From a virus (Duplodnaviria; Heunggongvirae; Uroviricota; Caudoviricetes), in the IMG/VR virus record IMGVR_UViG_3300033068_001655: a DNA stretch of 64,000 nucleotides; one strand, given 5' to 3'. Shown piece by piece: positions 29,018 through 52,823 of this stretch (positions are counted from its first letter, which is position 1; every line of letters begins with the position of its first letter). The notes beneath the pieces were generated by a model. The model made no database searches. It had not been told where the DNA came from and saw only the letters and a list, made by a program, of their open reading frames with translations. The position numbers and the translations under genes were made by a program.

Positions 29018-29035
29018 TTAGTATATATTATTTTT

Positions 29036-30973: not shown

Positions 30974-31000
30974 AAATGTATATATTAAATTTTTAAAATA

Positions 31001-31038: not shown

Positions 31039-31051
31039 TCAAAAGTCTCTA

Positions 31052-32944: not shown

Positions 32945-32984
32945 AATTTAATTGTTTTAATTGTTTTAGTTCTATTTTTAATTT

Positions 32985-33713: not shown

Positions 33714-33714
33714 A

Positions 33715-35218: not shown

Positions 35219-35322
35219 ATATCGTTTTTATATTTTGAAATACAAATGTACGACATTATTTGATAAAAACAAAACTAAACTAATAAATTTTTATTGATAT
35301 AAATAACTAAAACAATTAAGAT

Positions 35323-36432
35323 ATGATAATAAATTTAAAAAGTCAAACAGACCTTTCGGGGTTTTATGTAGTTTATGAAGGTTCAACAAACTTAGAAAAA
35401 CCAGGATGGTATGGAATATCACACTTAATGGAACATCTTGTTTGTAAATCATTTGATCACTTACAAGAAGATTTTGATAGAGATGGTATTGATTGGAATG
35501 CTTATACTTCTTCTAATGAAATCGTATTCTATTTAACTGGATTGGATGAAAAAGTAAACAAATATAAGAATCAATTTGTAGAATTACTAACTTCTTTTAA
35601 TGTAACTAAAGAAGAATTTGAAAATGAAAGAAAAATTGTTCTTGAAGAGTATATGGATTGTTTCAACGATCAGACTCAATCACACATGTTAAACCTTTCA
35701 AGAAAGTTATTCAATGATTATGATCCAATTGGGTTGAAAAAAGATTTAGAGAATTTGAAATTTATGGATTGTCTTAACTTTTTTGAATTACAATATGCTA
35801 AACCAACTAAAATTATCAATGTTTCTAAAAACAAGGATTATAAAAATAAATCAATTGAATTTCAAGAAAGAAAAATTGTAACTAATTTGAGTTTTGGTAA
35901 TCACGATGTTGATTTGGAATTAAATAATGATTTTAAAGATAAAACCTCTATTGTAATTTTATCTCCAGTGATTGAAGAAGATTTTGCTTACGTACACTTT
36001 ATAAATGCAATGTTATCATTAGGTTTAAAATCACCTTTATATCAAGAGATTAGAGAAAAGAAAGGATTAGTTTATTACGTTCATTGTTATCAATCAAGAG
36101 TAAATGATAAAGGATTGAATTCTATTTCGACTTTAACTTCAAATAGAAACTTTAATGAGGTTGTTGACGCTGTTAAAAAAGTGATTACAAACCCAGATAA
36201 GTTTTTAACTAAAGAAAGATTTAACATTGTTAAAGATTACTATGAGGTAAGAAAACAAAAAGACGAAATCAATAGATATGGTGCAGTAAATCAATGGATA
36301 AACCCTGCAGGTTGGTCTGTGTATGACATATTAGAAGAGGTTACTTTGAAAAAGATTAGAGAAGTTTATGATAAGTATTATGACTTTGATAAGTTTTATA
36401 TTTCATCAGACAAGAAAGAATTTAAAAAATAA
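35323..36432 (+). CDS. M16-family (insulinase/pitrilysin-like) zinc peptidase
   Basis: Inverted zinc motif HLMEH near the N-terminus (ISHLMEHLVCKS); 369 aa. Confidence 0.55.
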   Translation: MIINLKSQTDLSGFYVVYEGSTNLEKPGWYGISHLMEHLVCKSFDHLQEDFDRDGIDWNAYTSSNEIVFYLTGLDEKVNKYKNQFVELLTSFNVTKEEFENERKIVLEEYMDCFNDQTQSHMLNLSRKLFNDYDPIGLKKDLENLKFMDCLNFFELQYAKPTKIINVSKNKDYKNKSIEFQERKIVTNLSFGNHDVDLELNNDFKDKTSIVILSPVIEEDFAYVHFINAMLSLGLKSPLYQEIREKKGLVYYVHCYQSRVNDKGLNSISTLTSNRNFNEVVDAVKKVITNPDKFLTKERFNIVKDYYEVRKQKDEINRYGAVNQWINPAGWSVYDILEEVTLKKIREVYDKYYDFDKFYISSDKKEFKK

Positions 36433-36462
36433 ACCCACATTACAAAATTTAATAGATTTTAA

Positions 36463-36493
36463 TAAAAAACCACTCAAATGAGTGGTTTTTTTA
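36463..36493. terminator. Bidirectional rho-independent terminator (accactc aaat gagtggt ttttttt)
   Basis: Between convergent genes; A-run before and T-run after the hairpin. Confidence 0.6.
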
Positions 36494-36494
36494 T

Positions 36495-37052
36495 TTAGTA
36501 GTTTTCTTTTACCCAGTCAACTAATTTTAATAGATTTTCTGTGTTATTTGGATATTTATCCAATAAAGATTCTAGGAATTTTAATCTTCCGTCTTTATAT
36601 AAATCACCATATGCTTTATATTCATTGAAAATTCCATTTTCCCATTCTAATAATTGTTCAAAATCTCTTTCGACAATATTCATATCGTAGTAATTAAAAG
36701 ATTCTGAAAGATTTGTAGTAGCTTGGTGAGTTTTAGTATCTAAAATCATTTTACTAATATCAATCATATCAGGATTATTTTTATCTAGACAACAGCTTTC
36801 AAAAAACTCTGCCGATTTTTCTTCATTATCTTGTTTCATAGGATCATAAACACAATCATGAAATAAAGCAGTAATCAATAACTTTTCATATTCTTTTTGA
36901 GAGTATTTTGATTTACTTTCATTGATTTGCTCGATTAAATCATTTAAGTGATTTAAAGTATGATAAGAACGATGTGATTCATTCCACATTGCTAGTAATG
37001 TATTAACATCACATTTTATATTCCATTTGTTTAATAGTTCTTGTAAGTCCAT
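36495..37052 (-). CDS. HD-domain phosphohydrolase-like protein
   Basis: H...HD motif (YHTLNHLNDL...ALFHDCVYDP). Confidence 0.45.
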   Translation of the reverse strand: MDLQELLNKWNIKCDVNTLLAMWNESHRSYHTLNHLNDLIEQINESKSKYSQKEYEKLLITALFHDCVYDPMKQDNEEKSAEFFESCCLDKNNPDMIDISKMILDTKTHQATTNLSESFNYYDMNIVERDFEQLLEWENGIFNEYKAYGDLYKDGRLKFLESLLDKYPNNTENLLKLVDWVKENY

Positions 37053-37056
37053 TTAT

Positions 37057-37461
37057 TTAATTATTTTTATAAAAATCGACTTTATATCGATTTGCAATTT
37101 CTTCTGCTTTATTTAAGAAAGGTTCAGTTACAAAAAATACCCATTTGAATCCAGGATAGTTTTTATTTATATCAATTACTGACATGAAACTACCAAATCT
37201 TTCTGTATCACCTACTTTTTCTTTTGTACCAATTAGTTCTCCATTTTTATCGACAAACTTTGGTATACTAGCAAAACCTTGTTTCCACATTAGATCATCC
37301 ATTTCTTTACGAATTTTATCTCTTGTTTGCCACCCAGTTTTTATGAAATCAACTACTACACTTGGGTAGATAATTTTTTCTTCACCTTTACTATTATTAA
37401 ATCTTATCGGTGCAACGATAAAATCATCATCTAAACTTTCATTAAATTTCTTTATACGCAT
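37057..37461 (-). CDS. Hypothetical protein (CTS-like N-terminus MRIKKFNESLDD)
   Basis: 134-aa ORF. Confidence 0.4.
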   Translation of the reverse strand: MRIKKFNESLDDDFIVAPIRFNNSKGEEKIIYPSVVVDFIKTGWQTRDKIRKEMDDLMWKQGFASIPKFVDKNGELIGTKEKVGDTERFGSFMSVIDINKNYPGFKWVFFVTEPFLNKAEEIANRYKVDFYKNN

Positions 37462-37676
37462 AAACTATATATTAAAAATCTTTTTTATACTTTCCTTTCT
37501 AAAGTGTTTTCTATGCCATTTTGACATAATTTCCATGTGTGTTTTCACATATGTACTTCCCATTCTTCTTGGTTTCCCGACTAAAAACATTTTTTATAAT
37601 TTTTTTTCTTTTTCTAGGTCGCATTGTTGAATTTATAGCGTTGTAGAAGTTTTCTAAAAGATCGTCACCTTTCATA

Positions 37677-37925
37677 TTATTTTTTTAAAATTTCATCAAT
37701 TTTTGCCTCTCGTTTTGCTGCTTTCTCTCTTAGTAAACGTTCAGCTTTCTCTTGTTCAGTTTCTTCACGTTTTGCAGACTTATCGGCTTTATAAGCCCAA
37801 AGATTATCTAATAGTTCATCAACATATCCATATTTATCTACTTTGGTATAGCTACCTAAATCGTAGTATTTATCATAACTACTTTTATAAGAGTTAAAGT
37901 CGTCAAAAATATATTTCTTTTTCAT
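37677..37925 (-). CDS. Hypothetical small protein
   Basis: 82-aa ORF whose stop abuts the Sir2 start. Confidence 0.35.
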   Translation of the reverse strand: MKKKYIFDDFNSYKSSYDKYYDLGSYTKVDKYGYVDELLDNLWAYKADKSAKREETEQEKAERLLREKAAKREAKIDEILKK

Positions 37926-37926
37926 A

Positions 37927-38670
37927 TTATTTATTTAGTTGGTTAAAAATTGTTTGCATTCCGTTTGTAGCAACATCTTCAATGTGATGAAAATACGGTA
38001 ATTTATAATCTGGTATATCATACATCAACATATCTATTTTAGAAGGTTCGATGTAATATACAGGAGTTTTAAAATCTGTTAAAAATGGAATTTCATTTGC
38101 AGGAGATACTTGTAATGATGTACCAACAATTATACAGAAGTCACATTCTTCTGCAGCTTTTACTGCAGTATTTACATCAGAACTATCTAATTCTTCACCA
38201 AACCATACAATGTGTGGTCGTAGTTGAGAACCAGTTTTCTGACATTTATCACCTATTTTTATTTCTCCGTATCCTATATCAATAATTGTATCTAATGGAC
38301 TTGTTTTATGTGTGTACATACAACCTCTTGCTTTAGTTAGTTCACCGTGTAAGTGAATAACATTGGTAGAACCTGCTCTTTCATGTAGGTCGTCAACATT
38401 CTGAGTAACTACTGTTACATCAAAATTTTCTTCTAGTTTGGCAATTAGTTCGTGTGCTAAGTTTGGCACAACATCTTTTAACTGTGCTCTTCTTTGATTA
38501 TAAAAATCTAAAACTAACTCTCGGTCTTTTCGCCATGCACCTGGTGTGGCGACATCTTCAATCCTATGGTTATTCCATAAGCTCTCGGTAGAATCTCTAA
38601 ATGTTTCGATTCCACTTTCTTTTGAAACTCCTGCTCCAGTAAATACTAATATTTTTTTTCTTTCATTCAT
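37927..38670 (-). CDS. Sir2-family NAD-dependent protein deacylase (CobB-like)
   Basis: FTGAGVSKESGIETFRD, QNVDDLHERAG, Cys zinc ribbon. Confidence 0.8.
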   Translation of the reverse strand: MNERKKILVFTGAGVSKESGIETFRDSTESLWNNHRIEDVATPGAWRKDRELVLDFYNQRRAQLKDVVPNLAHELIAKLEENFDVTVVTQNVDDLHERAGSTNVIHLHGELTKARGCMYTHKTSPLDTIIDIGYGEIKIGDKCQKTGSQLRPHIVWFGEELDSSDVNTAVKAAEECDFCIIVGTSLQVSPANEIPFLTDFKTPVYYIEPSKIDMLMYDIPDYKLPYFHHIEDVATNGMQTIFNQLNK

Positions 38671-38750: not shown

Positions 38751-41700
38751 ATGAGTTCAACAAATTTAGTGAAAAAAAATTTATTTACAAAACCATACCT
38801 ATTAACTTTAGATGAGATAAGTCAGATTGGACAGAATATGAATTTAGTAGGATATGATCCTCAATTAAATATAACTAGTGATGATACTAATATTGTATTA
38901 AAATATGGTGTTCCAAGTAGTCCAAAGATTTTAAATTGGGTTGAACCTTATAAGATTAGTGGTATTGACTATACTTTATTTTATACAGAGGTAAATTCAG
39001 GGTTAAGTATTGGTGATAGAGTTTTTATTATCAATGGTACTTATGATAGTAATTTATTGATACAAGCAGATAAATATAAAAAAGGTCATGATGGTTATAA
39101 AGTTCTTTTTATTGATAAGTGTAAAGTAGTTTTAGACATAGAATTTACTGGTTCCTTACCAAGTAATGAAACAACTGAAAATAATGATGACTTTGATGAC
39201 TTTATAAAAGTTTATTATTTAAAAGATGCAAATGATTTCTTACACGTAAATAGACAAATTACTACACGTGTTAGTGGTAATACAGTTGATTTTAAATTTA
39301 ACAACTATCAAAATAATATAGTATTTACAGATAGTAATTTTGGTCCAGTAAATGATACTTGGGGATTAAATTCTGGATTATCAGGTGCACCAGGTTTTTT
39401 TATTAAAGATGGAACTGCTGGTTGGATCGATATAAGTTCTGATTTTATGATCGGTTCTTATTCGATTGCAGCAACTAATTCAAATAATAAGATACTTATA
39501 CTAAATAATGGATTTACATATAATGGTGTTGATTTTAAAGAAAATTCAGTTTATGCGTGGGAATATGATCCTATAAAAGCAACATTTAGCTGGGTAGTTA
39601 ATGTTAAACATGAAAACAATAATGTTCCTATTCTTACTAAGTCTAATTTTAGAGACGGTACCTTTAATGGTACTTTTAATGGTGGCTTATATGGTTCAAA
39701 TGAGAAAAGAATTACGTGGGGTTCAACCACCTCTTTCTGGAATCACGGAACTTTATTAAATACTATCTGGGAAAAGGGTATAATGGAGTCAAGATATAGT
39801 CAAGTTGAAAGTTATATTGCGGAGTTTGACTCATATGGTATGCCTTATCAAAAGTCAACAAATCCTGATAATGATGGATATGGATATAATTTTGTTATAA
39901 ATTCTGAAATACGTAATGCTGTTATCAATAATGCAAATGTTAGTAATTCTACATTAGGTACATCATCAAATTTCTCAATTATTGAAGAGCATGTAAGAGG
40001 TAATTTAACAGATCAATTTATTCAAGATAATTTTAACACTACTCTTATCAATAAAGCTTATTTTGAAAGTTGTGGTATTAGTAATACTAATATAGAAAAT
40101 GCAATAATAAAAAACTCAAGAGTTAGTAACTCAAGATTATATAGTGTTAAGTCGATCAATACACATTATAAGTCATCTTTATTTAAAAACTCAAACTATA
40201 TAAGTGATAATATAATTAAAGTATTAGATTTTGATGAATTTGAATATACAACTGGTAATAGTACAACACATTTAGTTTATAAATTCTATATAAATAAAAG
40301 AAGTTATGAAAAGTTTAAATTTAAAGATAACTTCTACATTAAGGGTATTAAATTAAATACAACCAATATAGTATTTTCTGATACTGAACCGGTTGGAAAT
40401 ACTATATTAAACTTCTTTGATAAGAAATTTAAGTTAGGACCTTGGACGGAATATGTTGATAATTATGATGATAGCAGTAATACTTTTTATAAACGACCTA
40501 TAAGATTCAATTCCTTTGTATCAACCCCTAAAGAAAATCAATATGAATTTGATAGTAATGGTAATACTAATGTAACAGGTCAAGTTACTAATACTAAGGG
40601 TTATTCATTAGATATTTTTGTTGAATTGGATAGTACTAATATACCTAATTTAACAGACCAAACCATCAGTTATAAAGATATTATAGACTTTTCTAATGCT
40701 TATATTCAAAACTCAGATTTTGAAAGTGGTATTGTTGAAAATTCAAACTGGAATAGTGGTCATCACATCAATTATAGTTATTCCAATAACTTAGTTGGTA
40801 CTTCAAGTCAAAATGGTATCTATGATATAAGTTTAACACAGTCTTCACTGATTTTAAACTCAATTATATCAAATGAGGAAGTTGAGTCAGATTATTACAA
40901 AAATGGTGATATTATTTTCCTAAATGCGGTTGATTATGATTCCAGAGGTACGGTTGATGGAATTTCGATAAGTGTACCGGGTTCTGGATATGTTACATCT
41001 AACAATATATCAACTAACTATGGTGGCACTGGTTTTGGTTTACAAATTAGTATTAGTGCAAGTGTAGTAGGTGGTGTGTCATCACTAACTCATAATGGGG
41101 ATGGGGATGGATTTACTAATGATGGTATTTATAGTGTAACTGGTGGTTCTGGAACTGGTCTGACATTAAATATAACACACGATATTAGTGGTCTTATCGA
41201 TACTTACTCAATTAATAATCCAGGATCTGGATATTTAGTAAATGATATAATCAGTATTGTTGATGCAGGTTTTCCTGCTACATTTAATATAAATAGTATA
41301 ACAAATGGTGAAGTAATAAGTGCATCAGTGAGTACAAGTGGATTATTCTATGAGGTTGGTGATATTATCAATATAGGTACAGGTAATGCTAAAATTGTAA
41401 TTACTAGTGTAACTGGTTCTTTAACAAGATTACCAGATACTTATAGGATTTCGGATTTAAACACATTTACAATTGATGAAGTAGTGGCAACTGGATCAAC
41501 TAGTGTCTTAATAGATCTTTTACCAGTTGGTGTATTTAGTTCTTATGGTGCTAATAATAGATATGGATATTTACATAAAACAAAGTTCTACAAATCAAAA
41601 ATATTATCTGGATTATTCAGAAGAGCTTATTTAAAAGGTTCCTTAATTAAAAATGATACAATTGATATTAGTGATAAAGATTTTACTAATATTGCAAAAC

Positions 41701-44162
41701 TTAAAAATTTAATAATCGCAGATACAATATTTTCTAAAAATGATAATATTTTATCTAATGCTTTTTATATATTCTCATCATTTGTTGGGGGTACTGATAT
41801 ATGGGATAATGGTATTTTATTTAGATCTATTTGGAACGGAATGATATTTAATAATGGTTTAGTAAGAGAATCTACTTGGTTAGATGGTACTTTCGTAAAT
41901 GGTCTATTCTATCTTTCTACAAAACCACCTTTATATAATATATTAGGTACTGGTTTAAATTTAACAATTGATTTACCATATTACAATTCAAATAATATAT
42001 TATCATATTATAGAAGCGGTGATACTACAATTGGTAACAATGATAGATTATCTTGGCAAAATGGTACATTTATCAATGGTGAATTTTATCAAAGTAGATG
42101 GGAATCTGGAGATTTCAATGGTGGTAAATTTTACTATTCTGATTTCTATGATGGTGTAATTAATGGTGGTATAATTGGTGATAAAACACTTTCAACAACA
42201 GATACTATAGTTTATAATGGTACTATCAATTATACAACTGTTGAAAATGCACTTTTTGAAGCTAATTATACTGATTATAATAAATCCGTACAAACTAATA
42301 TAAATTGGTATGATGGTGTATTTAATGGAGGTAAGTTTAGTACTTTTGATAATAATACGGCAACTTGGTACGGTGGTGTATTTAACGGTGGTGAATTCGG
42401 AGATTTGAATATACTAAATAGTTTTGGTAAACCAAAATGGAAAAATGGTACATTTAATGGAGGTAAATTTACATCAATATATGGTGTTGCTTCGAGTACA
42501 TATTCAACTACATCAATATTAAATGATATTAGTAACTATGCTTGGGAAGATGGTGTATTCAACGGCGGTGAGTTTGGATTTGGTGATTTTATAAGTTCTA
42601 GTTCATGGGCTAACAACTCAAGTTGGTTTAATGGAACATTTAATGGAGGTAAGTTTAAAGGAAAAGTTTGGAATAATGGAATATTTACGTTCGGTGAATT
42701 TTCTGGTAGTGGAGTTTCGGCAATTGGAGGAACTGCTTCAGATATTACAAATTCAAATCCAAATAATTTTGTAAAATCATTTATTGATAATGGTAATCAA
42801 TATTATGGATTATGGAGAAATGGATTTGTAACAGATACTAAGAGTAAATACTTAGATGAGGAAATTTTTACAGAATTAAAAAGAAATGACTTTAGTAAAA
42901 ATCAACAATTTGCATTATTGAAAAATATTCTTTGGTTAAATGGTACATTTAGTCATCCTAGTGCAACTATTCAAAATTCAGTTTGGTTAGATGGAGAATT
43001 TGGAAATGGTAGATTTGAAACTAGTTCTTTTAATCCATATGCAATAAGAGCAACTGGTTCCAGTGCGACATTTAACTTTAGTGATACTTGTAAATGGAGT
43101 AATGGTATTTTTGATTCAGGTGAATTTTCTATATCAAATTGGGAGAATGGTAGATTTATTATGGGTACTTCAACTGGTATGATTTGGAAAAATGGTATCG
43201 TAAATTATATGAATGCTTATAATGTATTCTGGGAAGATGGACTATGGAGAAATGGAAACTGGCAAGGTTCTTTCTATAATATAAATTCAGATGGAACTGT
43301 TACGGATCCTTATGTTCAACAAGTTTTAGATAGAGGTATGTCTTGGAGTGGAACTTCTTCTTGTCACATTTGGAGTTTGTTTTATAAAGAAAGTTTAACA
43401 GAATTTAGTGTACCACCAGTAAATGAAATGGCAACAACTGTTACTCAACAATTAGATTCAAGTGAGCCACTACCACCACTACCACCTACTCAATTTGGAT
43501 TGGTAAATTCTAGTACAAGTCCTGTACTGCCTAATCCATCTAATAAACAGTTAGGTTCAATTACTTGGACTGTTGATGGTGGTTCTACTAGTAAAGTAGG
43601 TACGGATTCAACCATTAGTGTTACTTTCACGGGAATTGATCAATTCAATCAAGTTAAGTGGGGAGTGGGTGGCCAAGATATAATTTTAATCAGTGGAATA
43701 TCTGATATAAGAACATTTACTCTACAACCTGGTGAAAATTATTTTGTAGTTAAGGCGACAAACCCGGATAATAATCAGGTTACTTATACTAATACTTTAA
43801 TTTATACTAAAATAGTACCATCATATGTTATAAATGATCCAATTAATCAAACAATAACACCTACTTTTAACAATAAAACAGGAACAATTGTTGTAAATAC
43901 AGCACCTGTGACATTAACACTTACTGCAAACGCGGCCGGTTCAAGTAGTACATTTGGTCTTTGTACAACAAAAGGTATTGCAACAATAAGTCTTTTTGGT
44001 AATCCTATTAACGGAAGTCCATTTAATACATCACTTGCATTAAATACTGGTACATCAGTAAGAACCACAACTATAACATTGACATCAGCAGGTACTTATA
44101 ATGTTACTTTATCAGGTACATTTAATGGATCTTCAGGTCTTGGAACTGTTACACTAACATAA
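38751..44162 (+). CDS. Giant (1803 aa) fibre/adhesin-like protein with W-x-N-G-x-F-x-G-G-x-F solenoid repeats and C-terminal Ig/FN3-like region
   Basis: Dozens of ~20-aa repeats (WYDGVFNGGKF, WKNGTFNGGKF, WEDGVFNGGEFG...). Pro-rich linker (PLPPLPPTQ) precedes Ig-like C-terminal domains. TTATATATAGTT motif upstream. Confidence 0.6.
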   Translation: MSSTNLVKKNLFTKPYLLTLDEISQIGQNMNLVGYDPQLNITSDDTNIVLKYGVPSSPKILNWVEPYKISGIDYTLFYTEVNSGLSIGDRVFIINGTYDSNLLIQADKYKKGHDGYKVLFIDKCKVVLDIEFTGSLPSNETTENNDDFDDFIKVYYLKDANDFLHVNRQITTRVSGNTVDFKFNNYQNNIVFTDSNFGPVNDTWGLNSGLSGAPGFFIKDGTAGWIDISSDFMIGSYSIAATNSNNKILILNNGFTYNGVDFKENSVYAWEYDPIKATFSWVVNVKHENNNVPILTKSNFRDGTFNGTFNGGLYGSNEKRITWGSTTSFWNHGTLLNTIWEKGIMESRYSQVESYIAEFDSYGMPYQKSTNPDNDGYGYNFVINSEIRNAVINNANVSNSTLGTSSNFSIIEEHVRGNLTDQFIQDNFNTTLINKAYFESCGISNTNIENAIIKNSRVSNSRLYSVKSINTHYKSSLFKNSNYISDNIIKVLDFDEFEYTTGNSTTHLVYKFYINKRSYEKFKFKDNFYIKGIKLNTTNIVFSDTEPVGNTILNFFDKKFKLGPWTEYVDNYDDSSNTFYKRPIRFNSFVSTPKENQYEFDSNGNTNVTGQVTNTKGYSLDIFVELDSTNIPNLTDQTISYKDIIDFSNAYIQNSDFESGIVENSNWNSGHHINYSYSNNLVGTSSQNGIYDISLTQSSLILNSIISNEEVESDYYKNGDIIFLNAVDYDSRGTVDGISISVPGSGYVTSNNISTNYGGTGFGLQISISASVVGGVSSLTHNGDGDGFTNDGIYSVTGGSGTGLTLNITHDISGLIDTYSINNPGSGYLVNDIISIVDAGFPATFNINSITNGEVISASVSTSGLFYEVGDIINIGTGNAKIVITSVTGSLTRLPDTYRISDLNTFTIDEVVATGSTSVLIDLLPVGVFSSYGANNRYGYLHKTKFYKSKILSGLFRRAYLKGSLIKNDTIDISDKDFTNIAKLKNLIIADTIFSKNDNILSNAFYIFSSFVGGTDIWDNGILFRSIWNGMIFNNGLVRESTWLDGTFVNGLFYLSTKPPLYNILGTGLNLTIDLPYYNSNNILSYYRSGDTTIGNNDRLSWQNGTFINGEFYQSRWESGDFNGGKFYYSDFYDGVINGGIIGDKTLSTTDTIVYNGTINYTTVENALFEANYTDYNKSVQTNINWYDGVFNGGKFSTFDNNTATWYGGVFNGGEFGDLNILNSFGKPKWKNGTFNGGKFTSIYGVASSTYSTTSILNDISNYAWEDGVFNGGEFGFGDFISSSSWANNSSWFNGTFNGGKFKGKVWNNGIFTFGEFSGSGVSAIGGTASDITNSNPNNFVKSFIDNGNQYYGLWRNGFVTDTKSKYLDEEIFTELKRNDFSKNQQFALLKNILWLNGTFSHPSATIQNSVWLDGEFGNGRFETSSFNPYAIRATGSSATFNFSDTCKWSNGIFDSGEFSISNWENGRFIMGTSTGMIWKNGIVNYMNAYNVFWEDGLWRNGNWQGSFYNINSDGTVTDPYVQQVLDRGMSWSGTSSCHIWSLFYKESLTEFSVPPVNEMATTVTQQLDSSEPLPPLPPTQFGLVNSSTSPVLPNPSNKQLGSITWTVDGGSTSKVGTDSTISVTFTGIDQFNQVKWGVGGQDIILISGISDIRTFTLQPGENYFVVKATNPDNNQVTYTNTLIYTKIVPSYVINDPINQTITPTFNNKTGTIVVNTAPVTLTLTANAAGSSSTFGLCTTKGIATISLFGNPINGSPFNTSLALNTGTSVRTTTITLTSAGTYNVTLSGTFNGSSGLGTVTLT

Positions 44163-44177
44163 AAATAAAATATAAAA

Positions 44178-45842
44178 ATGGGTAAGAAAGCAACAATACA
44201 ATTTACAAGTATACCACAATCATCGGACTTTTTTGGAATAACTATGTCAGGTGCTAGTGCATCATTTGAACTAAGTGAGATTCCTTGGGATGGTAGTGTT
44301 CTTCAACCAGGTGCAACTAAAGAATATTCTGCAACTAGTCTATATAACTATATAAACTCAGTTTTACCTATTGGTACTGATATTACTACAACAATAAATA
44401 GTAATACGATTAACTTATTTAGTGAGAGTGCAACAAGTGTTAAGTTTTTTTCTGACCCTGCAATACTTATTACTAGTGGTATTTTGGATGGTTATTCAAA
44501 TGTGTCTTCACAATCCTGGTCTGCAAATTATAATGTTGGAAGTAATATCTTAAACTTAACCTGGAGTGGAGCATCAGATCCAGAAGAATCTATCAGAGGG
44601 TATCACCTATCATATAAAAAAGGAAATAGTAATTCTTGGATTTCTTTAGGTTTAATTGAGACAAGTGATGGTGGTGCAAGTTATGATTTTACTATACAAC
44701 AACAAGTAACTCATGTTTTTAGAGTAATCACAGTAGATACAACAAATTTAACTAGTGAACCTGCTTATTTTACTTATTCTATAACTCCAATATATCAAAT
44801 AACATCAACTTCTAATTTACAATCTCAGTCAGCTTGTTCATTAGGGATTCCAAATAATGTTATTTATTTAACAACTACAATACCTACCATAAATGAATAT
44901 GTTTATACTGATGCTGCGTGTACTATTGGTTTTAATGGTACTAGAACAACAATATTGGGTAGTCCTGGGCCACAACCTAGAAACTGGAAAATTGGAACTC
45001 CAACAAATGTATATTATAGTTGTACTATAAATTCTGTTGGTATGATCACTACTAATCCTATTTTATGTGAAGGTGGGCCTAACAGTGGACTCATATCTAA
45101 TAATGCATCCACTGAAACGGGTGCTTGTAATTATTTAGTTAATGTAAATAATACTATATATTGGACTGGTACTTTGGCAGTGGGTACTATTCTATACCGA
45201 ACTAATACAAATGGTACTTTAACTAACACTGTTGTATTAGGTTATTATCATATTCTATCAACAGATTCAAATGGTTTAGAATTAGAGTATATTATTAAAG
45301 TAAGTAGTACGGGTGTAATACTTACTATGAAGTTATATTCACAATTTTGTAATATTAGTGGTGGTGGTAGCACTGGCGGTGGCGGTGGTGGTTGTGTTGA
45401 TCCTTTTGTATCAATATTATTACCAAATGGTGTTACTAAATTTGCAGGGGAATTAAAATCAAATGATATTATTCTAACTATACATGAAAAAACTAAAGAA
45501 TTAGGTGAGTTTAAAATACTTAATGCAGAAAAAATTATTCAAGAAAAAGTAATTGTTAAATTTACTGATGATACTGAAATTAAAGTTTCTGACACACACA
45601 AGTTTTTAATGAGTGATGATACTTGGAAACAAATATTTATGTTAAAAGGTAATGAAACTATTAAAGGTCTTGAAGTGGATAAAACTATAAAAGAAATTAT
45701 AAAAATCGGTACTGGTGAAGTAGTTGTACTTGAAGTAGAAGATGCACATACTTATATTAGTGATGGTTTAATATCACATAATGTTAAATTGGCAATCTTC
45801 GAAGACAATTCATTTTCAAATTTTGATGGATTATTTCCATAA
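44178..45842 (+). CDS. FN3-containing protein with C-terminal Hint (Hedgehog/intein-like) autoprocessing domain
   Basis: FN3-like segment (GYHLSYKKGNSNSW...VFRVITVD), then poly-Gly GGGSTGGGGGG|CVDPF (Hint block A Cys), SDTHKFL (block B), EVVVLEVEDAHTYISDGLISHN (terminal HN), then a 19-aa tail. Confidence 0.7.
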   Translation: MGKKATIQFTSIPQSSDFFGITMSGASASFELSEIPWDGSVLQPGATKEYSATSLYNYINSVLPIGTDITTTINSNTINLFSESATSVKFFSDPAILITSGILDGYSNVSSQSWSANYNVGSNILNLTWSGASDPEESIRGYHLSYKKGNSNSWISLGLIETSDGGASYDFTIQQQVTHVFRVITVDTTNLTSEPAYFTYSITPIYQITSTSNLQSQSACSLGIPNNVIYLTTTIPTINEYVYTDAACTIGFNGTRTTILGSPGPQPRNWKIGTPTNVYYSCTINSVGMITTNPILCEGGPNSGLISNNASTETGACNYLVNVNNTIYWTGTLAVGTILYRTNTNGTLTNTVVLGYYHILSTDSNGLELEYIIKVSSTGVILTMKLYSQFCNISGGGSTGGGGGGCVDPFVSILLPNGVTKFAGELKSNDIILTIHEKTKELGEFKILNAEKIIQEKVIVKFTDDTEIKVSDTHKFLMSDDTWKQIFMLKGNETIKGLEVDKTIKEIIKIGTGEVVVLEVEDAHTYISDGLISHNVKLAIFEDNSFSNFDGLFP

Positions 45843-45870
45843 GTAGTATTGAAAAAGTAATATATAGTTT

Positions 45871-48800
45871 ATGCCATTTATAGATACAAACATAGCACCA
45901 TCTTGGACATATGATGCCAATTTAGGAGGAATTAAAAGAATAGTTCTTAATGATACAAATATTAAATTTATTAAGAATACTGTCAATTCTACTTATAATT
46001 TTACTCAATTAAAAAACTATCAATTTGTTACAGGTATTACAGGTTCTGTTGCATTAGGAACGTTCTCTGTTAGATTTAGACCACCATTTACTACAAATAC
46101 TATTAATTTAAGAAGTAGTGTTTTAACTAATGGGGGAGTAGAATTCTATACATACAATAGTCCTAATAATACTCTAGCATCCAATACACTATTATCATAT
46201 GGCTCTGATAATTCTTTTACACAGTCAGTTATAAAATCTACTAAAGTAAATGAACTTAGTTTTCTTATAAATGGATTTAGAGAGTTTAGTTATTTAGATA
46301 GAGATATTGCAACATCATCTCAACCTAGTGGTTGGTTTTATGGTATTGCACCTGGTGATTTTGATCCTTCCTATAATTTCTTTTTATCTTCATCTACGAG
46401 TTCTATATCACCATCTTACTCTACATTGGGTTCAGGTTTAAACACAGTATCAAATAAGAACTTTATAGCAAAATATATTGAATATGATACATTTAACTTA
46501 GAATATAGTTTTTACACATCAACACCAGTGAATATGAGTATGTATTTACTGACTTTAGATAATTTAGGTACACCAGCAAATTGGGCATCACATATAGTAG
46601 CAACATTTTCAACAACTGGGACTTATAGTAATTTAGGATTAGTGGGTACTAACTATGATGGTACTAAAAATTATTTAGTTTTCTCTTGTGAAGCAGTTTT
46701 TAACACAGGTGTAAATTATACTTTAAATAGTAATGGTGATTCAGTACTAACTGATATTTACTCAAAATTATCTAATATAGAAATCTATGGTACTTATCAT
46801 CCAACTTCTAATAATAGATTGTCATTGACTGATACTACTACAAGTCCAATAGGTCTAAGTATTTCTAATGCTGCTTATTCATATACTTTATTAAACAATG
46901 GTGGAACATTCTCAATTCCATCTAGAATTGGTAACGGCGCATTTAGATCGGGTATATGGGAAAATGGAGTTTGGAATAATGGATGGAGAGATGATACCAA
47001 TACAAAGGATTTTGACGATGTTTATATTTCAGTTTTAACTGCATCTGATGTTTCTTGGAAAATAGAGATTAGAGGGGCAACCACTGCAATTGATGGATTT
47101 GCGACTGGTTCAAATGTTTCAATAGGAAATATCGTTGCAATTGATATAAATGATAATAGAAAACTTTTAAAAGATTATTATCAAATCGAATCACTTGGAG
47201 TTGATGCAGGTGATCCACAAAATGGTGTTGCACCGTATGGTTGGATTAGAGTTAATTTAGATACTTCATTTCCTTATAGAAGAATTGAAAAAGATTCACC
47301 TAATCATAAAATCAAAGTAACTAAGAATATTTGGTTATCAGGTGGTTTCTTTAATGGATATTTCTCTGGTGTTTGGAATAATGGTTTGTTTAAAGGCTAT
47401 CCATTATTGACAGAGATGTTTGATTCACATTGGATTGATGGATTATTTGATGGTGGACATTTTAATTCTACCTATTCTAATAACTATGATTTTATAGGAA
47501 TTGGTCCTAAAGTTGCTTGTAGTAATAATTTTATGGACTTAATTTTTGCATCATCATCCACAACACCTTTTTTACAAGGAGATTATATATTCCTTACCTT
47601 ATATGATATTGGTGAAGTATTTTTAACAGGTTCAGATCTTTATTCAGGGGTATGTCAAATTGTTGATGTTAAAGTAGATACGGAACCTTTAATGTCTGAT
47701 AATAACGGAGGGTTTATTCCAAATCCAAACTTTATGTATCAAACAATAACTATTAATAAAAGATCAATTGGTTTACCAAAATATTTTGATACTAATGCAC
47801 CCGCTGGTTATGCATATAGATATACTGCAACTTCTGTTATTCAAAATTTTAAATTTTATGATAATAATAGATCTAAAATAAAGTCATCTGATAGTCAATT
47901 ATCCAATGCAGTATTTAGTTTTAACTCTTGGATAGATGTAAATTATGATGATACAAGATCAGTAACATTAGGAAGAGATTTTAGAGTATATGAACCACTG
48001 ACAAAAAAGTCTGTTAGTAGAAATAATTTATTTGGTTATCCTACTTATGATATTTTATCAAGTGCTTCTCGTTTCAGAGATAGTAACTCACTAGATACTA
48101 AATTATATAAATTGGGGACAAAATATAAGGTGTTTAATGATTTTATTGGAGATTACTCAAAATTCAATGAACCATTTAGTGATTTAGACTTTGGTAGTTT
48201 TATCAGTGCAGGATGGACATATTCGTATGCAAACACATCTGACTTTAAAATTAAAAGAACTGAAAGTTTAATAACATTAAATGATAGTCAATCAACTGCA
48301 CTTTTAAACTCTGGTGTTACTGGTGACGAATTATATATCACTGCAAGTAATACTGGAATTATTTTAAATAATAGTAATGTAAATATAGAGAAATCTAGAT
48401 ATTCAGTAGTAGAGTTTGATGTAGTAACATATAGTGTTCCCAATACAATTTATACTTATGATAATCCAGATATTTATCAAAAAAGAAGTATTAGTAATGT
48501 AGGACTTTCTTTTAGTGAAACAACTAATACTGTAGATGCTTACATAACAAGTAGTTATAACTTAGTTGGTTCTCCAACATTCTCAGTAGGTGACATTGTA
48601 GTAATGGTTGATATATATGGTGATGTACCAGGAACTACAATTAATTTAAAGGCACCTAATGGTAAAATTGTGAATCTTAAAAAAGTAGGTACTGGTTTAG
48701 GTAGTAGAATGAATCAAACTAGATTTAGTTTTAGAGATATTTATGATAGATTTTCTTATATTACTACTCCATATAGTTTAAATAACACAACAATAGCATA

Positions 48801-51096
48801 TTCTGATACTTATCAAATGGATAAAGAAATCGGACAGGGAAATATAGCACCATTTTTATCTAATACTACTTTATTATCAGACTTAGTTTATACTAATGGA
48901 GTTCCTACTATTTATGGTACATGGACTTTATTTATAAAGTATAATCCACTTGCAGTAAATGTTTGTGATTTAGTTAATTGGTCTATTGATATACAATATA
49001 AACACTTAATTATTGAGGATAATGAACCAACTGTGTCATTCCCTATATTGAATTTTAACAATCTTAATTATGATATAACAACTCAATTGTCATGGTATGA
49101 TGATGTACAAATTTATAAAAGAATGAACTATCTACCTATACAAAATAATGTTAATCATTTATTGACACAAAATACATTTAGATTAGACTCTGTTGAATTA
49201 GCAACTCCTGCTAGATGGGGTGGCTTTGGTAAAAATCAAAAAACTAAAAAGTATGAGTATTTCTATAATAAAACTGATATGATGTTAAGTATCAATGGAA
49301 ATGGTGCAACTGGTGGTAGTACATCAATGGTTATATTAGATAATCTTAATATGTATGAGGTTGATATGATTCCATTCTTTAAATACTTTGATACACCTAA
49401 TATTTATAAAGGTGTTGTATTTCCTTATATTGGAATATCACCTGAAATAGATTACACAAATTCAGACTTTGTATTTATTGACAATATTACAATTGGTTTA
49501 GATAGTATTAACCCAGTGGCAGTTGATACTACATTTATTGATTGTGGGACTGCATCATCTGCAACTCTACAACTTAGTGCAAGTATAAATGGATTAGTCA
49601 CACCACCACTTTCTTGGACTACATCATCATACCAGTTTGTAAATATGTCAAATAGTAATACACCTGGTTCAGTAACTTGTTCTACAACATTTGATTCGAT
49701 CAGTTGGACTATTACCCCGTTATTATCTGGATTACCTCCAGTTACAATTTCTAATGCAAATAGTTTATATCCATCAGTATTAGGGTTGACTGCAAGTGGT
49801 GAATATAGTGTAGAGATTACAAGTCTAATTAAAAATGGACCACCATCTCAAGCAATTGGTTTACTTAATAATGGTGTATCAATTAAAGCAACTATTAAAG
49901 TGAATCCTAAACCGACTACAATAATTAATATTCAACCATTGGCACTACAATTTGATTTTGTACCTGGTGATGCAGTATCTCATATTATAGATGAGACTAA
50001 CTTATTGAATAATTACTCAAATAGTAATAATAATAATCCAAGTGCATTTGTTATAGAAAGTTTACCAATTGGAAGTTTATTTTATAATGGTGTGTCAATC
50101 ACATCAGTTCCTTTTGGACCTATCGCAATTGTAAGTGGTTCTATACCTGGTTTATTGTATTACCCAGAGGGTAATCCGCCATTAGTTCCACAAGCAGCTT
50201 CTTTTAGTACATCATTCGACTATACAATTATTGATAATGAGAATAATCCTTATACTACAACAATGCTAATTGTTGCTACAATACTACCTTCTACTATAAT
50301 AGTAGATACACCATTATCTAAATCGATAAATTATAGTTTTAATGAAAGTAATTTACAAGCAACAAAATACTTTAATGAGGTTGATTTAGTTCAAAATTAC
50401 ATTAATACTCCTAATGGTACACCTGCGAATCATATTAAAATTTATAGTGTACCATCAACAGGTGAGTTATCATATAATGGTACCCTAGTGTCTGTAAATG
50501 ATGTAATACCTTATATTGATCTAATTAGTGGTGCTCACTTTGCTTATCATCCACAAGGAATAAACCGTTTAGATACTACAGGTGGTAATTTTAATACAAC
50601 ATTCACATATACTGTATTAGATCCTCAGTCTAATGAAAGTAACTTAGTTACTTTTACTTTAAACTGTACTCAAATTTTAGTAATAAATGGATTTACATTA
50701 GGTCCATATGGTACTATGTATAATCCAGGAGGATTATCAGGAGGTAATACAAGTCATGACTTACTTTTAGGATATCCTTCAAATACGGCAATACTAAAAT
50801 GGAAGGCAACATATACATTAGTTGCTGAAACATATACAGATGCAAGAGTTGCATTTTCTACAAATGATTCTACACCTGCAGTGGTAACGTTGTGGTATGA
50901 TTTTAATGAGGTTAATGGACAAACACCAGGTATTCATTATACAGCTTGGAGAACACTAATACCTTCTTCTGCGGTATATGGTAATCCTATTTCTTGTTTA
51001 TTAAGAAGTAACAATGGACATACTATAACAATTACTGTACAAGCATTAGATTCAAGTAATAATATCCTAGGAACTTATACATTTACATCACCATAA
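45871..51096 (+). CDS. Giant (1741 aa) fibre/adhesin-like protein sharing the W-x-N-G repeats
   Basis: IWENGVWNNGW, WLSGGFFNGYFSGVWNNGLFKG, WIDGLFDGGHF repeats; TAATATATAGTTT directly upstream of the ATG. Confidence 0.6.
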   Translation: MPFIDTNIAPSWTYDANLGGIKRIVLNDTNIKFIKNTVNSTYNFTQLKNYQFVTGITGSVALGTFSVRFRPPFTTNTINLRSSVLTNGGVEFYTYNSPNNTLASNTLLSYGSDNSFTQSVIKSTKVNELSFLINGFREFSYLDRDIATSSQPSGWFYGIAPGDFDPSYNFFLSSSTSSISPSYSTLGSGLNTVSNKNFIAKYIEYDTFNLEYSFYTSTPVNMSMYLLTLDNLGTPANWASHIVATFSTTGTYSNLGLVGTNYDGTKNYLVFSCEAVFNTGVNYTLNSNGDSVLTDIYSKLSNIEIYGTYHPTSNNRLSLTDTTTSPIGLSISNAAYSYTLLNNGGTFSIPSRIGNGAFRSGIWENGVWNNGWRDDTNTKDFDDVYISVLTASDVSWKIEIRGATTAIDGFATGSNVSIGNIVAIDINDNRKLLKDYYQIESLGVDAGDPQNGVAPYGWIRVNLDTSFPYRRIEKDSPNHKIKVTKNIWLSGGFFNGYFSGVWNNGLFKGYPLLTEMFDSHWIDGLFDGGHFNSTYSNNYDFIGIGPKVACSNNFMDLIFASSSTTPFLQGDYIFLTLYDIGEVFLTGSDLYSGVCQIVDVKVDTEPLMSDNNGGFIPNPNFMYQTITINKRSIGLPKYFDTNAPAGYAYRYTATSVIQNFKFYDNNRSKIKSSDSQLSNAVFSFNSWIDVNYDDTRSVTLGRDFRVYEPLTKKSVSRNNLFGYPTYDILSSASRFRDSNSLDTKLYKLGTKYKVFNDFIGDYSKFNEPFSDLDFGSFISAGWTYSYANTSDFKIKRTESLITLNDSQSTALLNSGVTGDELYITASNTGIILNNSNVNIEKSRYSVVEFDVVTYSVPNTIYTYDNPDIYQKRSISNVGLSFSETTNTVDAYITSSYNLVGSPTFSVGDIVVMVDIYGDVPGTTINLKAPNGKIVNLKKVGTGLGSRMNQTRFSFRDIYDRFSYITTPYSLNNTTIAYSDTYQMDKEIGQGNIAPFLSNTTLLSDLVYTNGVPTIYGTWTLFIKYNPLAVNVCDLVNWSIDIQYKHLIIEDNEPTVSFPILNFNNLNYDITTQLSWYDDVQIYKRMNYLPIQNNVNHLLTQNTFRLDSVELATPARWGGFGKNQKTKKYEYFYNKTDMMLSINGNGATGGSTSMVILDNLNMYEVDMIPFFKYFDTPNIYKGVVFPYIGISPEIDYTNSDFVFIDNITIGLDSINPVAVDTTFIDCGTASSATLQLSASINGLVTPPLSWTTSSYQFVNMSNSNTPGSVTCSTTFDSISWTITPLLSGLPPVTISNANSLYPSVLGLTASGEYSVEITSLIKNGPPSQAIGLLNNGVSIKATIKVNPKPTTIINIQPLALQFDFVPGDAVSHIIDETNLLNNYSNSNNNNPSAFVIESLPIGSLFYNGVSITSVPFGPIAIVSGSIPGLLYYPEGNPPLVPQAASFSTSFDYTIIDNENNPYTTTMLIVATILPSTIIVDTPLSKSINYSFNESNLQATKYFNEVDLVQNYINTPNGTPANHIKIYSVPSTGELSYNGTLVSVNDVIPYIDLISGAHFAYHPQGINRLDTTGGNFNTTFTYTVLDPQSNESNLVTFTLNCTQILVINGFTLGPYGTMYNPGGLSGGNTSHDLLLGYPSNTAILKWKATYTLVAETYTDARVAFSTNDSTPAVVTLWYDFNEVNGQTPGIHYTAWRTLIPSSAVYGNPISCLLRSNNGHTITITVQALDSSNNILGTYTFTSP

Positions 51097-51809
51097 TCTC
51101 TAATTAGAAGTAGATATCCAACTTTACCTGGCTCTGTTTTAGAACAGTGACCCATTGCATCAATCTTGGTTTCATCACCAGTTAGTTTGATCTTAGTAAG
51201 TTTTTGTTTCCCTAAAATACGTCTTTCTCCTTTACAAGTTGTACAAGGGTTTAAGCCTACTTTTCCTTTACCAAAACAGAATGGACAATCTTGATCTCTA
51301 TATTTTCCAGTACCTTCACATAAATCACATCCATCTTCTGAATCAAATATCTTTAATATGTTACCATCATTATCTTTAATTAAGATTTTAGAAGAAAGAT
51401 CTTTTCCAGTACCATCACAAGGTTTACAACGAACCCATCTTTCATACTCTACTGTTCCATCAAAAGTATCATCTACCTTTAGATAGATATTATAGATTTC
51501 GTTTTTCTTAAATTGTTCATATTTATCTTTAGTATCATCATGTGAATAATCAAAGTTTGTTTCAAAAAGTTCATAGTATTCGTTATAACAATTACCAAAT
51601 TTACTTTTTTTATCATAATCTTCTCTTTCTTCTCCACAAAGGACATCATATGCTTCTGTCATTTCACCAAAAATAACTGCATCAGACTCTTTATTATTTT
51701 TATCAGGATGTAGTATCTTGGCATTGTTATAGTATGCTTTTTTAATTTCTTTTAATGTTGAATCTTTTGAAATTCCAAGTATTAGGTAATAATTTTTATT
51801 TAGGTTCAT
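51075..51809 (-). CDS. DnaJ-like co-chaperone (J domain + CxxCxGxG zinc finger)
   Basis: YYLILGISKDSTLKEIKKAY...LHPDKN (HPD motif); CKPCDGTGK, CDLCEGTGK, CPFCFGKGK, CTTCKGE repeats. Confidence 0.7.
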   Translation of the reverse strand: MNLNKNYYLILGISKDSTLKEIKKAYYNNAKILHPDKNNKESDAVIFGEMTEAYDVLCGEEREDYDKKSKFGNCYNEYYELFETNFDYSHDDTKDKYEQFKKNEIYNIYLKVDDTFDGTVEYERWVRCKPCDGTGKDLSSKILIKDNDGNILKIFDSEDGCDLCEGTGKYRDQDCPFCFGKGKVGLNPCTTCKGERRILGKQKLTKIKLTGDETKIDAMGHCSKTEPGKVGYLLLIRDYGDVNV

Positions 51810-52440
51810 ATTTTATATATTTTTTTAGATTATCTAGAGCCCATAATGCTTGAAAATTGGTGTAGTGATTTAACTCAATTGCCTCTTCATAAGTTTTTGC
51901 CATAGATATTGGTTTTATATGATCGAAATGCCATTCTCCATGGTTTTCTAATGTCATACCTTCAGTAAAAGTTGATTTAATATGAATTATAAATTCTTCT
52001 ATTGAACATCCTATTATAATTGAAGTTTTTGTTTTCTTTTTATAATTTAGACTTTTTATAGATGATCTTATAGTGTTTCTAATTAGTCTAGTCATTCTAT
52101 AAACCTCATCTTTTGATCTTTTTTTCTCTGACTTTCTTTTTATTTCATTAGACCTCTCTCTATTATTAGAGACCCATTCTTTCAAATAATTAGGATTTTC
52201 TTCAAAGAATTTATCTCTTGCTCTTTTTGTTATTTCTGGATTTTGTAATTTATAAATTTTACTTTTTTCTCTTAAAATATCTCTATTTTTTTCTCTATAT
52301 TTCCTAGAAGATTCTTTTTTTCTACATTTTTTACAAATAAATCCATTCTTTGTAAAAAATTCTTCATCTAATTCAACGATACAAGTAATGCAGGTTTTCA
52401 TAAAGCTAATATTTTTATAATATATATTAATATATGGCAA
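51796..52440 (-). CDS. HNH-family nuclease with N-terminal zinc ribbon
   Basis: CITC...CKKC N-terminus; C-terminal EWHFDHIKPIS...NFQALWALDNLKK HNH-like motif. Confidence 0.45.
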   Translation of the reverse strand: MPYINIYYKNISFMKTCITCIVELDEEFFTKNGFICKKCRKKESSRKYREKNRDILREKSKIYKLQNPEITKRARDKFFEENPNYLKEWVSNNRERSNEIKRKSEKKRSKDEVYRMTRLIRNTIRSSIKSLNYKKKTKTSIIIGCSIEEFIIHIKSTFTEGMTLENHGEWHFDHIKPISMAKTYEEAIELNHYTNFQALWALDNLKKYIKYEPK

Positions 52441-52456
52441 CCACCTTTATCATATT

Positions 52457-52663
52457 TTATTTAGATTCATCTATTAGTTCATTTATTTTTTCTTGTAGAA
52501 TTGGAAAATCATAATTTAAAACTATATCTGATATTTCTTCTGAAAAATCATCCTCAAATACTAAGCAATCTGTGTTTTCAATAAATTGAATTAAGCTTGG
52601 TAATCCTTTTTGATATACGTTTAAAATTTTTTCCTTACTTAAATAACGTTTATTACTTCCCAT
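52457..52663 (-). CDS. Hypothetical small protein
   Basis: 68-aa ORF. Confidence 0.35.
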   Translation of the reverse strand: MGSNKRYLSKEKILNVYQKGLPSLIQFIENTDCLVFEDDFSEEISDIVLNYDFPILQEKINELIDESK

Positions 52664-52809
52664 ATTTTTTCTAATTTATTTATTTTTTTAATTCTTCTAA
52701 GTTTTCTATACTCTATATTATTCATTCCTCTTGGACCTGGCCAGCCTTGTGGTCCGGTTACACCTATTGGACCAACCAAGCCAGTTGGTCCAGATATACT
52801 ATTATTCAT
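52639..52809 (-). CDS. Small ORF (56 aa) with a collagen-like (G-X-Y)7 run
   Basis: MNNSISGPTGLVGPIGVTGPQGWPGPRGMNNIEY... Hand-translated; overlaps the previous ORF by ~23 nt in another frame; not in the track. Confidence 0.3.
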   Translation of the reverse strand: MNNSISGPTGLVGPIGVTGPQGWPGPRGMNNIEYRKLRRIKKINKLEKIWEVINVI

Positions 52810-52823
52810 ATTTTTAAAAAAGT

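Follow-up and report, generated by a model that had tools for sequence, protein, structure and literature searches.

Two giant open reading frames flank a Hint-domain gene

We analyzed a 64,000-nucleotide stretch of DNA (hereafter, the window) from a tailed virus of the class Caudoviricetes, IMG/VR record IMGVR_UViG_3300033068_001655. Two giant open reading frames (ORFs) in the window, ORF A (1,803 amino acids [aa]) and ORF B (1,741 aa), are separated by a middle ORF of 554 aa. All three were found where the initial annotation of this DNA had placed them, and the peptides quoted there are present in the translations. That annotation described A and B as paralogous fibre proteins that share a solenoid repeat. 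What is new here is a repeat of the pentapeptide clan, with a predicted three-sided coil of 15 residues, in a giant fibre candidate that occurs either split between two genes or fused in one chain.

The repeat is a 15-residue unit of three pentapeptides

The motif W..G.[FWYIVL] occurs 19 times in ORF A versus 1.1 times expected (2,000 shuffles; maximum, 7), and W-x-[ND]-G-x-F-x-G-G-x-F units occur about 20 times versus about once by chance. Most of these units lie at aa 1018 to 1510, with a few near aa 300 to 320 and 657 to 670. The autocorrelation of tryptophan across ORF A peaked at a lag of 15 residues (0.25), whereas lag 20 was unremarkable (0.06, the level of lags 25 to 40); the autocorrelation of aromatic residues and glycine peaked at lag 5. 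Wherever loops are absent, the spacing between units is 15 residues. The unit thus comprises three pentapeptides, W-x-[ND]-G-x / F-x-G-G-x / F-x-x-S-x, and not the stretch of about 20 residues first proposed. Across the family, the consensus reads [WF]-x-[NDG]-G-x / F-x-[GN]-G-x / hydrophobic-x-x-S-x, with a near-invariant serine in the turn that precedes each tryptophan. Short relatives of 560 to 700 aa (P0047, P0049, P0296, and P0304) carry near-perfect arrays, such as STWINGQFNNGTMIN STWVDGIFNNGIISD.

Long arrays had been described in both giant proteins, which holds for A but not for B. ORF B contains four motifs versus 0.56 expected, and shuffled sequences also reach four, so that the counts alone are not significant. 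These motifs are confined to two short clusters (Table 1). We nevertheless consider the clusters real because they form the most invariant columns in an alignment of 46 members of the B family; in the first cluster, G354, N355, W363, G366, W368, N369, G371, and R373 are invariant. Neither a recent expansion of the repeat at the DNA level nor a template/variable pair of a diversity-generating retroelement was found in A or B.

Profile searches link the repeat to pentapeptide-repeat proteins

Although the repeat had been considered impossible to place in a known family, profile comparisons pointed consistently in one direction. With a profile of the A repeat, the top eight matches in the PDB were all pentapeptide-repeat folds (E = 0.0016 to 0.046), among them EfsQnr, 6fls, and the luminal domains of SV2A and SV2C. 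A profile of the full-length A family gave ten PDB matches, all of them natural or designed pentapeptide-repeat solenoids, at profile positions 357 to 508 (E = 0.015 to 0.6). Single-sequence searches of the PDB with A and with B, and a search with a B-family profile, returned nothing. When A alone was compared with Pfam, Pentapeptide_4 scored 24.1 to 26.3 bits (cut-off, 38) and matched only aa 423 to 482, outside the tryptophan array; Qnr models matched weakly at aa 384 to 484 (15 to 18 bits). Pfam and NCBIfam scans detected no pentapeptide-family match in B, and comparison of whole A and B with PHROGs yielded only one weak PHROG of unknown function. The arrays of the short relatives scored higher: P0047 and P0049 passed the Pentapeptide_4 cut-off (39.3 and 39.8 bits, respectively), and P0049, P0052, P0302, and P0304 passed that of LD_SV2 (37 to 49 bits; cut-off, 29) on their W-x-N-G-x-F arrays. 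These five relatives matched the A-repeat profile with E values of 1e-48 to 1e-82.

The 5-residue periodicity of the clan was recovered in the sequence as G(i-2)-x-[FW](i) and, in both structural models described below, as 3-residue strands at every 5 residues. The repeat thus has in common with pentapeptide-repeat proteins (PF13599 Pentapeptide_4 and PF23894 LD_SV2, including Qnr, MfpA, AlbG, Rfr, and the SV2 luminal domain) a tandem 5-residue period, a large hydrophobic central residue with a small residue two positions before it, and a right-handed beta-solenoid, which for A and B is predicted. It also differs from them. The consensus A-[DN]-[LF]-x-x was not found, the unit being [WF]-x-[NDG]-G-x here versus A-[DN]-L-x-x in those proteins. 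A strict 15-residue super-period of three nonequivalent units replaces the four equivalent faces of a 20-residue coil. Finally, the arrays sit in modular phage proteins of 1,800 to 3,500 aa rather than in dimers of about 200 aa. On sequence grounds, we assign the repeat to the pentapeptide-repeat clan as a diverged member.

Structure prediction indicates a three-sided solenoid

The aromatic, glycine, and asparagine periodicity had earlier been taken to suggest a beta-solenoid, a proposal borne out by two confident AlphaFold models, one of A aa 991 to 1530 (pLDDT, 84.7; pTM, 0.85) and one of P0047 (pLDDT, 90 to 98 in the repeat part). In the P0047 model, the strand and turn pattern assigned by DSSP recurs exactly every 15 residues. 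Both models superpose best on three-sided right-handed beta-helices (TibA, Ag43, pertactin, EtpA, and a phage receptor-binding protein), with TibA among the top three neighbors of each, and both are themselves predicted to be right-handed and three-sided. Canonical pentapeptide proteins are four-sided, with 20-residue coils; this quadrilateral Rfr fold, with four pentapeptides per coil, was not found in the models. The sequence repeat of a beta-solenoid normally corresponds to one coil. Taken together with the models, this rule points to a three-sided helix with a 15-residue coil of three pentapeptide-type arches. The modeled core shows a beta-solenoid of a diverged pentapeptide-type repeat with three 5-residue units in each 15-residue coil, and these coils are predicted to pile up into a three-sided, right-handed helix of the kind seen in phage tailspikes and autotransporter adhesins. 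By a rough estimate, a core of one tryptophan and two phenylalanines per coil looks tight.

The passengers of TibA, Ag43, and AIDA-I, together with pertactin, have in common with the prediction for A and B a short-coil, three-sided, right-handed beta-helix, which in those proteins forms an extended adhesin shaft. A further likeness to the TibA, Ag43, and AIDA-I passengers is that the window encodes a TibC-type enzyme. In contrast, the coil of autotransporter passengers spans about 19 residues, against 15 in A and B, and A and B are encoded by a phage and have neither a signal peptide nor a beta-barrel translocator, according to Pfam scans and inspection of their N termini.

A and B correspond to one protein encoded by two genes

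The idea that A and B are paralogs was rejected: BLASTP between them found only the motif (E = 0.001), and hhalign of the A repeat against B aligned 48 columns (91% probability; E = 1e-6). The two proteins have a repeat type in common but are not paralogs along their length. Their relation became apparent from their relatives. A search with the A-repeat profile among 1.84 billion sequences detected 764 cluster representatives at E ≤ 1e-3, of which 189 fell below 1e-30, and many of these relatives are 2,000 to 3,550 aa long. In 70 of the 135 best relatives, an A-like part (A aa ~57 to 1510) is followed in a single chain by a B-like part (B aa ~300 to 870 or as far as 1213). At one related locus (L007), a single 2,747-aa ORF occupies the syntenic position of A and B. 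The gene order M16 peptidase, orf185, (Sir2), A, (Hint ORF), B, DnaJ, SbcC recurs in related loci, although the Sir2 match was not seen in L002, L004, or L007, and A and B adjoin in every related locus examined. Given the fused chains and the synteny, A and B are best read as two halves of one giant modular protein, split here and fused in many relatives.

The distribution of this family is narrow. Matches to A and B in the phage collection were restricted to uncultured genomes of 634 to 735 kb (LR745206, LR756502, and LR756501/3); in a tblastn search, 86% of ORF A aligned with LR745206, the 634-kb genome, at 46% identity. A sequence identical to protein B is recorded on a JGI contig of 175.8 kb. 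In a pattern search of 185,579 species genomes, which reaches fairly close relatives only, the A repeat was found on one contig of a metagenome-assembled genome (MAG), and a bacterial origin of A and B was rejected on this basis. That contig, JALOAD010000029.1 (L009; 43 kb), is assigned to 'Candidatus Muiribacterium halophilum'; it probably derives from a huge phage and was binned with a bacterial MAG, but it could alternatively point to a host. As far as the searched sequences indicate, the family occurs almost only on huge-phage contigs. The largest complete huge-phage genomes belong to the Mahaphage clade, for which Bacteroidetes hosts were predicted (Al-Shayeb et al. 2020; PMC7162821).

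A miniature version of A was observed on a Logan contig of 22% G+C (L008; ERR12320396), where positions 6245 to 8140 encode a 631-aa protein (P0049) consisting of the N-terminal domain and a regular 15-aa array. The N-terminal domain and solenoid therefore also exist as a stand-alone unit. The neighboring genes (PhoH with homing-endonuclease hints, a TnpB/Cas12f-like gene, and an S1-domain protein) are uninformative.

Conserved proximal parts are followed by variable distal modules

Coverage of A and B by their long relatives (Table 1) shows an architecture of conserved N-terminal parts, conserved solenoids, and interchangeable C-terminal modules. In B, conservation among 119 relatives extends over aa 1 to 870 and 1050 to 1215. 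The C-terminal 229 aa of A, at the opposite extreme, have only three homologues in 5.8 billion proteins. Pfam searches with separate segments gave no family match for the insertion at A aa ~700 to 900. Proline-rich linkers are present, as had been described, but the Ig/FN3-like domains proposed for both ends were not confirmed: the C-terminal end of A gave a weak, sub-threshold PKD hint (E = 0.064; ten segments searched against Pfam), and B aa 870 to 1050 gave a P_proprotein hint only (E = 0.11). P_proprotein is, however, on record for several relatives of B and reached an E value of 1.5e-8 in two of 19 scanned. Alternative modules at the variable ends of relatives include a DUF5122 beta-propeller, a proprotein-convertase P-domain, He_PIG, Fib_succ_major, and C1q. 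Both A and B are mildly acidic (pI ~4.7) and begin without hydrophobic leaders, and no signal peptide or membrane segment was detected in either.

Table 1. Features of the A/B locus and of the TibC-like gene; positions are counted from the first nucleotide of the window
Feature	Coordinates	Strand	Basis
ORF A, putative N-terminal half of giant protein	38751..44162	+	aa 51-700 and 900-1545 conserved in 116 long relatives
A aa ~296-500, predicted first solenoid segment, more canonical pentapeptide-like repeats	39636..40250	+	Sub-threshold or weak matches to Pentapeptide_4 and Qnr
A aa ~700-900, variable Gly/Ser-rich insertion with GSGY motifs	40848..41450	+	Covered by 20-47 of 116 relatives
A aa 991-1530, predicted main W/F-rich solenoid array, ~20 units broken by loops	41721..43340	+	
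A aa 1550-1803, Pro-rich linker and variable beta-rich C-terminal module	43398..44159	+	Near-zero coverage by relatives
Middle ORF, 554 aa, C-terminal Hint domain	44178..45842	+	Between A and B
Hint domain, aa 415-535, Cys415 after GGGGGG, C-terminal SHN followed by Val	45420..45782	+	TIGR01443
ORF B, putative C-terminal half of giant protein	45871..51096	+	More than 390 homologues, on contigs up to 648 kb
B motif cluster 1, aa 353-373, GNGAFRSGIWENGVWNNGWRD	46927..46989	+	Invariant columns in 46 family members
B motif cluster 2, aa 486-535, NIWLSGGFFNGYFSGVWNNGLFKGY...HWIDGLFDGGHFNSTY	47326..47475	+	Invariant W, G, F, and N columns; hhalign to A repeat
B aa 870-1050, semivariable insertion, P-domain-like	48478..49020	+	Coverage down to 75-82 of 119 relatives
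B aa 1215-1741, variable C-terminal region with two ~100-aa internal repeats	49513..51093	+	Coverage falls from 81 to 3 of 119 relatives
1,275-aa protein: GT1 domain, TibC/Aah-type O-heptosyltransferase domain (aa 730-1077), C-terminal methyltransferase	57976-61803	-	

The middle ORF carries a Hint domain

The Hint-type protein noted between A and B was recovered here: the middle ORF passed the TIGR01443 (intein_Cterm) cut-off (18.9 bits; cut-off, 15.6) but scored below that of Pfam Intein_splicing (17.2 bits; cut-off, 35.8). It resembles bacterial intein-like and Hedgehog-type Hint domains in its cysteine nucleophile after a glycine-rich linker (Cys415) and its C-terminal His-Asn (...SHN535) and differs from them in falling below the Pfam Hint and intein cut-offs and in the valine after His-Asn. 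Because the residue following Asn535 is this valine and not the Cys, Ser, or Thr needed at +1, canonical splicing is unlikely, and we infer that the domain more probably carries out cleavage or ligation. The chain continues for only 19 residues beyond the domain, and the N-terminal 414 aa gave only weak FN3 and DUF7402 hints. The Hint ORF lies between A and B in L002 to L005 and is absent from L001, L006, and L007; it is a lineage-specific insertion. Read-through or recoding from A into the Hint ORF was also considered and rejected, since the two are in frame but the junction reads TAA AAA TAA, with two in-frame stops.

A and B are candidates for a virion-exposed fibre

Our interpretation of function, which we hold at slightly better than even confidence, is that A and B form a fibre or adhesin exposed on the virion, its shaft being the solenoid. 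This reading draws on the conserved proximal parts, the interchangeable distal modules of extracellular type, the lack of export signals, and the near-absence of the family from bacterial genomes. Phage receptor-binding proteins typically pair a conserved N terminus with hypervariable distal ends, and the variable ends found here fit the host-recognition role first suggested for these very large proteins. Under this reading, the conserved N-terminal parts would anchor the protein to the particle and join B to A; the solenoids would form a long rigid shaft; and the interchangeable C-terminal modules (Ig/PKD-like and P-domain-like, with propeller and C1q in relatives) would bind the host surface. 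The Hint-domain ORF might, speculatively, serve as an autoprocessing accessory in the lineages that have it. Phage tailspikes and fibres with beta-helix shafts, such as Staphylococcus phage Andhra gp15, the tailspike proteins of CBA120, and the Pam1 tailspike, likewise combine a conserved proximal part with exchangeable distal modules. They differ from A and B in that no sequence relationship is detectable, that neither A nor B showed an enzymatic groove or a depolymerase signature, and that A and B lie outside a tail gene cluster, with an unusual size and split or fused layout. Our literature searches turned up nothing of relevance on pentapeptide repeats in huge phages or in the fibres of phages.

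Several observations weigh against this interpretation. Neither A nor B reached a curated cut-off in Pfam or NCBIfam, and a Foldseek search of the PDB with the A model found nothing below E = 0.38. No homologue was found in any cultured phage of the phage collection. The genes sit among nonstructural genes (Sir2, DnaJ, SbcC, and peptidases), outside a tail or baseplate module, and the Sir2, M16, DnaJ, and SbcC flanks are conserved in related loci. Hallmarks of trimerization are weak: Peptidase_S74 appeared as a faint precomputed match in one relative (P0153), C1q was detected in one of 19 relatives (E = 1.2e-5), and neither was found in A or B themselves. The structural and evolutionary statements made above are much firmer than the functional one.

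The location outside a recognizable structural module would also suit proteins that are not part of the particle and whose target, after lysis, is instead the infected cell or what surrounds it; they might, for example, remodel the envelope, exclude superinfection, or serve as adhesins of a matrix or biofilm. The best structural neighbors of the models, TibA, Ag43, pertactin, and EtpA, are indeed bacterial surface adhesins. However, A and B have no signal peptide, membrane segment, or autotransporter barrel, and thus no evident export route; their conserved N terminus and hypervariable distal ends resemble receptor-binding proteins; and the family is almost absent from bacterial genomes. We consider a role outside the particle unlikely.

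More doubtful still is that the arrays are ordinary four-sided Rfr-fold helices that, in the manner of Qnr, MfpA, and AlbG, mimic DNA or modulate topoisomerases inside the cell. All sequence-level links lead to pentapeptide-repeat proteins (Qnr, AlbG/McbG-like, and MfpA), relatives exceed Pfam cut-offs, A and B are mildly acidic, and the neighboring genes (Sir2, SbcC, and DnaJ) are intracellular. The initial annotation had itself named assignment to a well-characterized nonstructural family as the outcome that would count against a structural role, and this applies in part: the clan is a known one, and its studied members, Qnr and MfpA, are nonstructural, but the predicted geometry and the architecture of A and B are different. 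The period is 15 rather than 20 in both sequence and predicted structure, chains of 1,800 to 3,500 aa with adhesin-type modules (propeller, P-domain, He_PIG, and C1q) are unlike mimics of about 200 aa, and the net charge is modest (about -15 over 586 residues).

Finally, A and B might be internal or ejected virion proteins (an inner body or a DNA-delivery conduit) rather than external fibres, given that huge phages carry very large proteins of unclear role, some tentatively annotated as structural (PMC7162821), and that a rigid solenoid could act as a ruler or conduit, but this is improbable in view of distal modules of extracellular-binding types and of hypervariable C termini (that of A above all, with its few homologues), which suggest selection by a variable external ligand.

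A TibC-type enzyme in the window and its candidate substrate

The TibC-like domain of the 1,275-aa protein (Table 1) matched TibC in the PDB (4rap; E = 2.5e-53) and TIGR04414 (282 bits; cut-off, 200). Compared with the key residues reported for TibC (PMC4358343), the domain retains the catalytic Asp110, Thr226, Lys230, Trp305, and the four cysteines of the iron finger, whereas Arg286 is replaced by Leu; three of the four sugar-binding residues are kept. IMG/VR has 47 contigs with TibC-like domains, and Microcystis phage Mel-JY01 encodes another under the annotation FkbM methyltransferase.

The gene immediately upstream of that for the enzyme, likewise on the minus strand, is a collagen-like ORF (61844-64000) that runs off the end of the window; a listed 397-aa ORF is its C-terminal part. 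The ORF has a (GSS/GTS)n run at ~63179 to 63800 with a 9-nucleotide DNA period, and its C-terminal part looks beta-helix-like by eye. Runs of (GSS/GTS)n occurred within 10 kb of 12 of the 47 viral TibC-like loci versus none of 11 control loci. The collagen-like protein appears to be a likelier substrate of the TibC-like enzyme than A or B.

The possibility that the enzyme instead glycosylates the A/B solenoid as TibC glycosylates TibA, using the conserved third-turn serine of each coil, has some appeal: the domain passes TIGR04414 with most of its key residues conserved, the hyperglycosylated TibC substrate TibA is a top-three structural neighbor of both models, and a near-invariant serine stands in the turn before each tryptophan. 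Against it, the 28 B-bearing and 47 TibC-bearing viral contigs have a single contig in common; LR745206 and LR756502 carry A/B without a TibC-like gene, and LR756504 carries the enzyme without A. Arg286 is lost, and the Ser/Thr-rich collagen-like ORF upstream is the better candidate. Because of the poor co-occurrence and the better substrate beside the enzyme, glycosylation of A/B is only a low-probability alternative.

Surroundings of the locus

The proteins of 1,068 and 1,364 aa encoded upstream had been grouped with A and B into a block of about 33 kb of structural genes. This grouping was not upheld. Between the two genes and A lie genes for an S1 RNA-binding protein, M28 and M16 peptidases, an SPFH protein, dephospho-CoA kinase (CoaE), and Sir2, most of them on the opposite strand, and B is followed on its 3′ side by DnaJ and then SbcC. 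The 1,068- and 1,364-aa proteins form a conserved adjacent pair (18102-21308 and 21319-25413, plus strand), also observed in Lak megaphages, Sphingomonas phage PAU (gp264/gp265), and Tenacibaculum phages, all of which are without A/B. The 1,068-aa protein alone also matches Chryseobacterium and Flavobacterium phages, as well as PHROG 29329 of unknown function (2.7e-91). We regard the pair as a module separate from A/B.

Host-like genes surround A/B at 26549-38670 and 51075-54521, including SPFH/Band 7 and an SbcC/Rad50-like ATPase, and an NAD-dependent DNA ligase is encoded at 15930-17762. A cluster of 13 tRNA genes at 1181-4014 (minus strand) includes three for tRNA-Phe(GAA), two for tRNA-Trp(CCA), three for tRNA-Lys, two for tRNA-His, and one tRNA-like gene with a four-base anticodon call (gaag) at 2969-3044; the Phe and Trp copies stand out beside giant proteins rich in these residues. 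The 30 ORFs between 14855 and 61803 end in TAA (28) or TAG (2) and never in TGA. The G+C content of the window is about 28%. The TAA bias is probably an effect of this low G+C content, since the long ORFs are intact under the standard code.

Implications

The W/F-rich 15-residue repeat could define a class of beta-solenoid that is experimentally undescribed: right-handed and three-sided, with three pentapeptide-type arches per coil and stacked ladders of Trp and Phe, derived from the four-sided pentapeptide fold through the loss of a face. Such a helix would be the shaft of a fibre of more than 3,000 residues that marks the lineage of the largest known phages, encoded whole or in two genes, and the Hint protein might couple or mature the split parts covalently. 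We offer this extended proposal tentatively and think it less probable than the fibre function itself. More generally, the repeat may show how a four-sided pentapeptide solenoid was rebuilt as a three-sided 15-residue coil, which is relevant to the evolution and design of solenoids, and the split and fused layouts predict that A and B bind each other. The largest known phages (600 to 735 kb), whose predicted hosts are Bacteroidetes, have never been cultured. The A/B family, with at least 764 cluster representatives, unannotated everywhere, is a concrete candidate for host recognition in being conserved, syntenic, and hypervariable at its distal ends, and it offers a handle for host prediction or capture experiments.

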